From the IMG/VR virus record IMGVR_UViG_2513237200_000009: a stretch of DNA of 39,262 nt, one strand, 5' to 3'. The number at the start of each line of letters is the position of its first letter. The first letter of the stretch is position 1. Below the pieces are notes generated by a model that was given only the letters and a program-made list of their open reading frames with translations, ran no database searches and was not told where the DNA came from. Positions 11,851-13,262 of this stretch are shown piece by piece. This stretch comes from a virus (taxonomy: Duplodnaviria; Heunggongvirae; Uroviricota; Caudoviricetes). The position numbers and the translations under genes were made by a program.

Positions 11851-11994
11851 CCTCAATTAGTATTGGTTCGCCTTTCTCATTAATTGTTAGCTCCATGCCC
11901 TGAGGAATTTCTGTCATAGTAAAAAACCAGTTGTCCTCCGGTAATTCAATAGCCCCGGTCACGTCATGAAGACCGGGGATTACTTCAGTCAAAG
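11819..11994 (-). pseudogene. small ORF downstream of H (possible fibre chaperone) split by the IS insertion
   Basis: reading frame ...[16 protein letters not shown]... is continuous across 13255/11994 once the IS and one target-site copy are removed; its 5' end (GTG with GGAGG SD) lies at about 13276 beside the H stop. Confidence 0.5.
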
Positions 11995-12023
11995 TGTAGT
12001 GGCACACTAAATTTGGCCACCTG
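11995..12023. repeat. IS left terminal inverted repeat
   Basis: tgtagtggcacactaaatttggccacctg. Confidence 0.7.
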
Positions 12024-12066
12024 ATGAAAGGTGATATTCTCACCACAACACAAAACAGGTGACTTA

Positions 12067-12378
12067 ATGAACAAGAAAACCAAACGAACCTTCACCCCTG
12101 AGTTCAGGCTGGAATGTGCACAGCTGATTGTTGATAAGGGCTACTCATATCGACAGGCCAGTGAAGCGATGAATGTCGGTTCAACCACGCTTGAGAGCTG
12201 GGTACGCCAGCTCAGGCGAGAGCGCCAGGGTATTACGCCCTCTGCCACACCCATTACTCCAGACCAGCAACGTATCCGCGAGCTGGAAAAGCAAGTTCGC
12301 CGTCTGGAGGAACAAAATACGATATTAAAAAAGGCTACCGCGCTCTTAATGTCCGACTCGCTGAACGGTTCACGATAG
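12067..12378 (+). CDS. IS3-family transposase OrfA (HTH)
   Basis: [26 protein letters not shown]...[18 protein letters not shown], close to IS911 OrfA as remembered. Confidence 0.85.
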
Positions 12379-13243
12379 CCGCCAGACTAAGTGACAGCCA
12401 CACGGTTGTCAGCCTGTGTTCTGCTCTGGAAATACACCGCAGCAGTTACCGGTACTGGCGAAAACGACGCGATACGGTTAATCCGGCACGAGTCAGGTTG
12501 TGCAGCGAAATACGCCGGGCGTGGAACCAAAGTCGGGGCTCTGCGGGCGCGCGCACTCTGGCTGAAATGCTGACTCAAAACGGCGTCCCGATGAGCCGTT
12601 ACCGTGCCGGACGTCTGATGAAATATCTGAACCTGAGCAGTTGTCAGCCCGGAAAACATCAGTATAAAAATGCCCGTCAGGAGCATACCAGCCTGCCGAA
12701 TCTGCTTGAGCGTCAGTTCGCAGTACCGGAGCCAGACCGGGTATGGTGTGGAGATATTACGTATCTCTGGGCAGGAAATCGCTGGTGCTATCTGGCGGTT
12801 GTTATGGATCTTTTGCCCGCAGGGTTATCGGCTGGAGTCTGTCAGCGCATGCCGATACCGCACTGATAAGCAGTGCCCTGCGGATGGCCTATGAGACGCG
12901 TGGCCAACCCCGGGATGTCGTGTTCCATAGCGACCAGGGAAGCCAGTATACAGGCCTTAAATATCAACAACTTCTCTGGCGTTGCAGAATAAATCAAAGC
13001 GTCAGTCGGCGGGGAAACTGCTGGGATAACAGCCCCATGGAACGCTTCTTCCGCAGTCTGAAAACAGAATGGGTGCCAACGAATGGTTACGCAGGCAAGG
13101 ACGAGGCCCGGCAGCAAATTAATGATTACATATTGAACTACTACAACAGCGTCAGACCTCACCATTATAACGGTGGGCTGACGCCGGAAGAGTCAGAGAA
13201 CAGATACCATTTTTACTGTAAAACCGTGGCCAATATTACTTGA
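12330..13243 (+). pseudogene. IS3-family transposase OrfB (DDE integrase domain), frameshifted
   Basis: -1 frame after A AAA AAG (12327-12333) is open to 12866, then the conserved continuation ([10 protein letters not shown]...HSDQGSQYT...[12 protein letters not shown]) sits in another frame from about 12811; a T4 run where T5 would restore the frame. Confidence 0.65.
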
Positions 13244-13251
13244 CCACTACA
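13224..13251. repeat. IS right terminal inverted repeat
   Basis: ccgtggccaatattacttgaccactaca; its reverse complement pairs with the left repeat. Confidence 0.7.
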
Positions 13252-13262
13252 AAGTAACTGGA

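Follow-up and report, generated by a model that had tools for sequence, protein, structure and literature searches.

An IS3-family insertion in the invertible tail-fibre segment of a P2-like Escherichia coli prophage splits a small gene located behind the expressed fibre tip

The stretch of DNA analysed here (the window, 39,262 nucleotides in total length) carries an insertion sequence inside the invertible tail-fibre segment of a P2-like prophage. The gene that follows the currently expressed fibre tip, Hv, is broken by this insertion, whereas the silent cassette and its tfa gene are intact. We consider it highly probable that the window represents the prophage of E. coli W in which a single IS insertion has broken a putative tip-specific helper gene, that inversion of the segment has continued since, and that the IS copy in the window bears a T4 allele. 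The observation made in a first-pass annotation of this DNA is confirmed and nearly all of its interpretation is correct. The feature itself is an ordinary one: the IS is known, the genome that carries it has been published and annotated, and invertible segments of this kind are known as well.

The prophage, the insertion and its IS-free allele

Global comparison reveals that the window aligns end to end with positions 957165-996435 of the E. coli W chromosome NC_017664.1, apart from a single mismatch and a single gap over the 39,262 nt. The gap is located in a T run of the IS, and the mismatch, at window position 23660, is a synonymous change of a Leu codon in the capsid scaffold gene. The prophage is situated between rcdA and ybjL, which is the rybB site, and it has been listed as 'Rybb*W (P2)' by Archer et al. 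2011 (PMC3032704). Judged by its sequence, the window is the P2-like (Peduovirus) prophage that E. coli W carries at rybB, or else a derivative that is nearly identical to it. A fil pseudogene is also present in the prophage.

Features of the tail-fibre region are listed in Table 1. The inserted element starts with TGTAGTGG and finishes with CCACTACA, ends of the TG...CA type. The first-pass annotation had described an IS3-family element of 1.26 kb with imperfect terminal inverted repeats, and this description agrees well with our analysis: the element is 1257 bp long and its left and right repeats match at 20 of 26 positions. Its length lies within the range of the IS3 family (~1.2-1.55 kb), and the imperfect TG...CA repeats and a target duplication of 3-4 bp are likewise as found in that family. 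The span assigned earlier, 11992-13254, does contain the element but takes in both copies of the duplicated target, the IS proper being 11995-13251. The duplication had been given as (A)AAG. A 3-bp AAG is indeed present on both sides, but the extra A is the last base of the IS; we rejected a 4-bp duplication (AAAG), since unrelated copies of the element also finish with ...CTACA and so include this A.

Table 1. Features of the invertible tail-fibre segment and of the inserted element (window positions)
Feature	Position	Strand	Remarks
Serine invertase, Hin/Gin/Cin/Pin type	10145..10711	-	PF00239, E 2.3e-53; PF02796 (HTH_7), E 1.5e-15
Left 26-bp crossover site	10767..10792	-	reverse complement TTCTCCCAAACC AA CGTTTATGAAAA
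Silent alternative fibre tip cassette, collar-domain type	10793..11245	+	PF07484
Tail fibre assembly gene tfa of the silent cassette, intact, 201 aa	11245..11850	+	PF02413 Caudo_TAP, E 1.1e-31
3' part of the 65-aa gene, codons 9-65 and stop	11819..11994	-	
Target-site duplication, left copy, AAG, 3 bp	11992..11994	.	
IS3-family insertion sequence, probably ISCfr6	11995..13251	+	1257 bp (reference form 1258 bp)
Left terminal inverted repeat, TGTAGTGGCACACTAAATTTGGCCAC	11995..12020	+	20/26 positions equal the reverse complement of the right end
orfA, helix-turn-helix regulator, 103 aa	12067..12378	+	PF01527 HTH_Tnp_1, E 8.8e-13
Programmed -1 ribosomal frameshift site A AAA AAG, orfA to orfB	12327..12333	+	in orfA frame
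orfB, 5' part, -1 relative to orfA frame, premature stop after the T4 run; holds the first catalytic D (CGDITY)	12333..12866	+	
T4 run (wild type T5), 1-nt deletion, throws orfB out of frame	12811..12814	+	
orfB, 3' part, out of frame; second D (HSDQGSQY) and E (NSPMERFF) of the DDE triad	12815..13243	+	
Right terminal inverted repeat	13226..13251	-	
Target-site duplication, right copy, AAG, 3 bp	13252..13254	.	
5' stump of the 65-aa gene: GTG start, MRLFNPVT, then L and TAG from the IS end	13252..13276	-	WP_001440573.1 in IS-free allele
H tail fibre gene as now assembled, 463 aa; constant part and variable tip Hv (residues about 350-463)	13263..14654	-	
Right 26-bp crossover site, inside H	13593..13618	+	TTCTCCCAAACC AA GGTATGCGAGAA

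The same IS is present at the same site in exactly seven of 5,426 genomes. These carriers are two W records, B-766, HBUT-L, hubt-sl and two assemblies labelled DH5alpha which have the same junction. A comparison with an IS-free allele, which the first-pass annotation had called for, bears out the insertion: once the IS and one AAG are taken out, the resulting 600-nt junction is found with 100% identity in seven E. coli genomes that lack the IS. A match covering at least 80% of this junction is found in 107 genomes, and the matches listed are 97.8-100% identical. One of the seven fully identical IS-free strains, 82.0312, has the same P2-like backbone, with sheath, invertase, silent cassette, tfa, the small ORF, H, I, J, W and V. 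Because an exact IS-free allele exists, including one on the same P2-like backbone, a simple insertion with a 3-bp duplication is proven. One copy of the IS transposed into the Hin/Gin-type invertible tail-fibre segment, presumably by the copy-out and paste-in mechanism that is customary in the IS3 family, with OrfAB as DDE transposase. In doing so it duplicated a 3-bp AAG that lies within codons 8/9 of a 65-aa gene, 11 nt behind the stop codon of H.

Identity of the element and state of its transposase

Gene layout of the element is also that of the IS3 family, with overlapping orfA and orfB, a -1 frameshift at an A6G-type motif, and HTH and rve/DDE domains; the rve/DDE core is recognized in the repaired OrfB as PF00665 (E 3.4e-27). 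Intact copies in RefSeq carry the annotation 'programmed frameshift', and the exact OrfA protein is found on at least 1000 contigs. Megablast with the 1257 nt of the window copy detects the IS in 2,415 of 5,426 complete E. coli genomes, with an identity of at least 99% in 937 records. Full E. coli copies of the element are 1258 bp in length and are annotated as 'IS3 family transposase, programmed frameshift'.

The element had earlier been called IS911-like. This holds for its layout, its ends and its family, but the relationship is distant. IS911 has a length of 1250 bp (the reference form of the window element has 1258 bp) and makes a 3-bp duplication, as the window element does. Both have TG...CA ends with related left ends (TGAAGTGG...TTTGGCCACCTGA in IS911, TGTAGTGG...TTTGGCCACCTGA here), an orfA-orfB -1 frameshift at A AAA AAG, the same 15 residues at the C-terminus of OrfA and a DDE/rve transposase. 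However, compared with IS911A of K-12 MG1655 the window IS is only 67% identical in nucleotide sequence over its first 390 nt, and its proteins share 57% (OrfA) and 50% (OrfB, N-terminal part) of their amino acids with those of IS911A; the comparison covers the left 764 nt, and the matches listed comprise K-12 fragments only and no full-length IS911. By ISfinder convention, isoforms share about 95% or more of their nucleotides or 98% or more of their amino acids. IS911, as the named element or as an isoform of it, was therefore rejected, and the values of 67% (nt) and 50-57% (aa) indicate a different IS.

The element is probably ISCfr6. This name is suggested because a partial copy containing the region of our 70-nt probe (98.6% identity, T5 type) bears the NCBI PGAP label 'IS3-like element ISCfr6 family transposase', and because of the copy number in E. 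coli O121:H19, which has been reported to have six intact ISCfr6 copies (PMC9397093). With the 70-nt probe, an O121:H19 genome shows six places for the window element, the same number as in the literature. The likeness to ISCfr6 is thus one of label and copy number, and the name is to be taken as a lead; the window copy differs by its T4 frameshift. Two 'IS911' copies have been counted in W by Archer et al. 2011 (PMC3032704). A probe made of the junction plus the IS finds two places in each W-lineage chromosome, consistent with that count, and it appears that Archer et al. counted the window element as IS911.

Base-by-base alignment of the window copy with the 1258-bp reference form, taken from two mutually identical copies, reveals a single difference, which is one missing T. 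The frameshift in orfB had been proposed from the reading frames, with the expectation that T5 would restore a specified peptide, and T5 restores exactly that peptide. With T5 in place OrfAB is 392 aa long, the same length as RefSeq WP_085968792.1. In the window, the OrfAB frame shifts after ...VVMDL and ends at residue 266 of 392, with the loss of two of the three DDE residues. A count of the T run, also proposed earlier, reveals that the T4 of the window is not wild type: the reference copies have T5, as do 976 of 986 probe records. In this search the 70-nt probe was centred on the T run, and the 976 T5-type records match it at 98.6% identity. Three records are at least 99% identical to the probe; both of those listed are exact T4 matches, and one listed T4 copy is annotated in RefSeq as a frameshifted pseudogene. 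An ORF of 166 aa that is specific for T4 is present on 10 contigs, and the five places listed are in assorted contexts, none of them the W prophage. T4 therefore recurs sporadically, and slippage mutations and homopolymer miscalls would both give such a pattern.

T5 and an intact transposase annotation are found in all seven complete W-lineage assemblies that carry the same insertion. Because all seven have T5, the frameshift is private to the window sequence, and it has arisen either by recent slippage or by misreading of the homopolymer. It is quite possible, although we do not favour it, that the IS copy is in fact intact and autonomous like the other W-lineage copies and that T4 is a homopolymer error of sequencing or assembly in the source record. 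Such an error would agree with the intact protein WP_085968792.1 encoded in each of the seven T5 assemblies, with the presence of only one other change, a synonymous SNP, between the window and NC_017664.1 over 39 kb, and with the sporadic occurrence of T4 in unrelated copies and contexts, as is expected of recurrent miscalls. However, real slippage mutations in a T5 run are also common, and at least one other T4 copy is present in RefSeq, where it is annotated as a frameshifted pseudogene. As read, the window copy lacks the intact transposase of an autonomous element owing to T4 at 12811-12814, with the caveat of a possible sequencing error. If one T is truly missing, no active transposase can be made from this copy, which would then be movable only with enzyme supplied by the second copy in the W chromosome. 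T4 is the only element of the region that is absent from public annotation; it is trivial and may be an artefact.

The enlarged segment still inverts

The tail-fibre segment has an adjacent serine recombinase with a C-terminal HTH, paired sites of ~26 bp with one of them in the fibre gene, and is found in both orientations, as is typical of an invertible segment. The two crossover sites are identical over 15 nt, TTCTCCCAAACCAA, the central AA included, and the right site falls at about codons 346-354 of H. The constant part of H is joined either to the Hv tip (to residue 463) or, after inversion, to the collar-domain tip with the 201-aa Caudo_TAP protein. That the IS is located inside this segment and just downstream of the H stop was correctly noted in the first reading of the sequence; it lies 11 nt beyond the stop codon at 13263-13265. 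The silent cassette does keep an intact tfa, as was also noted (201 aa, with the PF02413 match given in Table 1).

In B-766 and HBUT-L, positions 10776-13606 of the window, which include the IS, have the opposite orientation to the flanking sequence on either side. The end points of this inversion, at 10776-10793 and 13592-13606, map to the crossover sites, and H of these two assemblies encodes a 504-aa protein which is followed by the intact tfa. The inverted orientation is found in four assemblies (B-766, HBUT-L, CP026085 and hubt-sl) and the window orientation in three (two W records and CM135829). All seven agree in insertion site, in duplication and in the orientation of the IS relative to the segment, and so represent one insertion event in both states of the switch. 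The segment, enlarged from ~1.57 kb to ~2.83 kb, thus still inverts.

The arrangement is reminiscent of the Mu G (S/U, S'/U'), P1 C and e14 P segments, which belong to the Gin/Cin/Pin/Hin systems. In these as in the window, the invertase adjoins the segment, the sites are 26-bp inverted repeats centred on AA, the segment excludes the constant N-terminal part of the fibre, two convergent cassettes each comprise a tip and a helper, and both orientations occur. Unlike these systems, the segment described here is placed in a P2-like (Peduovirus) backbone and contains a 1.26-kb IS, and one of its helpers would be a 65-aa N-domain-only protein instead of a full Tfa of ~175-200 aa.

The interrupted 65-aa gene and the fibre switch

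The IS splits a small ORF at codons 8/9. As had been claimed from the window, this ORF is continuous once the IS is removed; it is then 65 aa long and is annotated in IS-free alleles, where RefSeq gives it as the 'hypothetical protein' WP_001440573.1 with a GTG start behind GGAGGG. In these alleles the start of the gene overlaps the end of H by 14 nt, and the gene may be translationally coupled to H. The first-pass annotation had considered that the interrupted frame might have no homologues in IS-free relatives, but it clearly has them. The exact 65-aa sequence is present on 997 contigs, and homologues of 57-90 aa, down to ~60% identity, are found in Escherichia, Enterobacter, Salmonella, Citrobacter, Hafnia, Cronobacter, Kosakonia, Xenorhabdus and Erwinia. 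Throughout the family the proteins begin with MRLFN, and 14 columns of the core are invariant.

Location of the gene is conserved as well. In nine of nine loci from other genera, namely Intestinirhabdus, Erwinia, Trabulsiella, Enterobacter, Xenorhabdus (four loci, three species) and Pantoea, a homologue of the 65-aa protein directly follows a homologue of the Hv tip (37-63% identity) with an overlapping start, which lies 11 nt (8 nt in one locus) before the end of the Hv homologue. In Peduovirus S164, a small ORF likewise directly follows the Hv homologue with an overlapping start.

A Pfam search with the 65-aa protein gave no family at E <= 0.01, and the Caudo_TAP profile PF02413 was not matched. 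The protein does match the profile of phrog_5400, a functionally uncharacterized family, in the first 66 of its 145 positions. Profile comparison (hhalign) aligns it with residues 1-59 of a 128-aa protein (gene_1) of Cronobacter phage JK004 with a probability of 98% and an E-value of 3e-13. Residues 36-127 of this JK004 protein are Caudo_TAP, scoring 74 bits against a cut-off of 22, and the 65-aa protein ends where the C-terminal Caudo_TAP domain would begin. An AlphaFold model of the 65-aa protein has a pLDDT of 85, and its best structural match, a weak one (E 0.097, probability 0.96, TM 0.55-0.58), is the 60-aa 'tail fiber assembly protein' of Pantoea phage LIMEzero. Searching PDB sequences with the profile of the 65-aa protein returned chance matches alone (E > 0.5). 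The full H protein has one match among PDB sequences, 9d93 (E 2.2e-09), which covers residues 279-341 of the constant shaft and not the Hv tip. Kinship of the 65-aa ORF to the 201-aa Tfa of the window itself was ruled out, the hhalign probability being 0.4%.

Compared with the Caudo_TAP proteins P2 gpG, Mu U and lambda Tfa, the 65-aa gene occupies the place of gpG/U directly after the fibre gene, and its product is homologous to the N-terminal 59 residues of the JK004 member. However, it is devoid of the C-terminal Caudo_TAP domain and has no Pfam match. North and colleagues reportedly found in 2019 that Mu Tfa binds the fibre, and does so in a fibre-specific way, through its N-terminal domain. 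Because it always follows this type of tip and is homologous to the N-domain of a Caudo_TAP protein, the 65-aa protein is most likely a tip-specific assembly factor. We infer from its sequence relationships that the family acts as an N-domain-only tail-fibre helper for the Hv type of tip.

The H-Hv form of the fibre, which is now in the expression position, would then have lost its helper. In the H-Hv state the fibres might fold or attach poorly, and one of the two host ranges would be lost, whereas the alternative form, consisting of the collar-type tip and its own 201-aa Tfa, would be untouched. It had been suggested earlier that the expressed fibre variant may have lost its downstream partner. 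The downstream gene is indeed broken; its role as a partner is suggested by synteny and by remote homology to the Tfa N-domain.

The insertion might also be without phenotype, either because the 65-aa ORF is dispensable for fibre assembly or because the prophage was already defective. The persistence of the insertion in the laboratory W lineage and the fil pseudogene carried by the prophage are compatible with this. So is the finding that the 65-aa protein, which is of hypothetical function, has neither its own Pfam family nor a relative of solved structure. However, members of the family are conserved in several genera and share invariant residues, they are placed immediately behind the Hv tip in every locus examined, and the protein has homology to the N-domain of a true Caudo_TAP member, which makes a silent insertion unlikely in our view.

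RefSeq annotates a hybrid ORF of 62 aa (MCHY followed by residues 8-65) which starts at 12007 inside the IS. That this ORF is translated from read-through transcripts of H and still provides the helper function is very improbable: RefSeq does call it, AGGTGG is present 9 nt upstream of its GTG and the consensus scan gives no convincing terminator on the minus strand of the IS, but the ORF is without the invariant MRLFN N-terminus, has lost translational coupling to H and is separated from the late promoter by an additional 1.26 kb of antisense IS sequence. The scan for promoter and terminator consensus sequences covered 10600-13700 and gave no excess over shuffled sequence, with no sign of an outward promoter or of polarity.

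Returning to the loss of a tip-specific helper, we put forward, as a tentative proposal for and against which the evidence is nearly balanced, that the 'MRLFNP' proteins (phrog_5400) constitute a distinct minimal class of tail-fibre helpers. Such proteins would consist of the fibre-binding N-domain of Tfa without the Caudo_TAP oligomerisation domain and would be strictly coupled to one type of tip inside the invertible segments of Enterobacterales prophages. The W lineage would accordingly represent a naturally occurring knock-out, which continues to switch with one of its two alternative host ranges disabled.

The finding has little significance beyond annotation. It carries a warning that the 'frameshifted transposase' in the window may be a homopolymer artefact. 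As a modest by-product, a link to tail-fibre assembly proteins emerges for an unnamed 65-aa family, and this could be reflected in the annotation of its members. For the biology of the prophage, the case would illustrate how one of two host-range states of a phase-variable fibre may be lost silently to an IS, with the switch still running.

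Accessory genes and divergence from E. coli W

Across 39 kb, the prophage has a single substitution relative to that of E. coli W (NC_017664.1), located at window position 23660 (A in the window, G in W) in the capsid scaffold gene, where it is synonymous (Leu TTG/CTG, codon 92). Two of its accessory genes (see table) look like anti-phage defence cargo occupying variable positions of P2-like prophages. The GmrSD-domain gene adjoins the portal gene; the KAP-family NTPase gene has the integrase on one side and the CI repressor on the other. A 314-aa ORF separates the tail-completion genes from baseplate gene V; encoded on the opposite strand, it has the look of a moron, an accessory gene inserted into the late operon. 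In the early region, a truncated pseudogene is also annotated.

Accessory and decayed genes of the prophage, in window coordinates
Feature	Position	Strand	RefSeq annotation
GmrSD-domain gene	26908-28689	-	GmrSD restriction endonuclease domain-containing protein
KAP-family NTPase gene	36678-38129	+	KAP family P-loop NTPase fold protein
314-aa ORF	17126-18070	+	hypothetical protein, annotated at 307 aa
Truncated fil pseudogene	about 35026-35181	-	fil (phage filamentation protein), truncated

IS copies lacking a target duplication

Full copies of the same IS are present in NZ_AP018802.1 (locus L001, positions 1501-2758) and NZ_CP023061.1 (locus L002, positions 301-1558), and in both the target duplication is absent, the flanks being TCT/GCC and GGG/GTG, respectively. 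The copy in NZ_CP023061.1 is flanked by two different truncated genes. Together with the missing duplications, this suggests that deletions next to the IS, or recombination between its copies, took place in these two strains.

The invertible fibre segment in other genomes

Many homologues of the 65-aa gene, the small ORF following the Hv fibre tip, were found on short contigs, just 1.2-1.7 kb or so in length (among them loci L012, L014, L018 and L020). Two of these short contigs, L018 and L020, carry one tip with the small ORF, convergent with tfa and the other tip. It seems that the inverted crossover sites interrupt short-read assembly, so that invertible fibre segments come out as separate contigs.

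The same invertible cassette pair is also carried by NZ_CP065152.1 (locus L003, positions 2580-4170), in an unrelated prophage adjoining ssrA. Comparison with window positions 10774-11995 and 13250-13623 reveals 98.7-99.5% identity, bounded at the crossover sites, whereas the baseplate module of the L003 prophage is different (GP46, J/gp47, YmfQ). This indicates that the switch segment in its entirety travels between phage types as a module.
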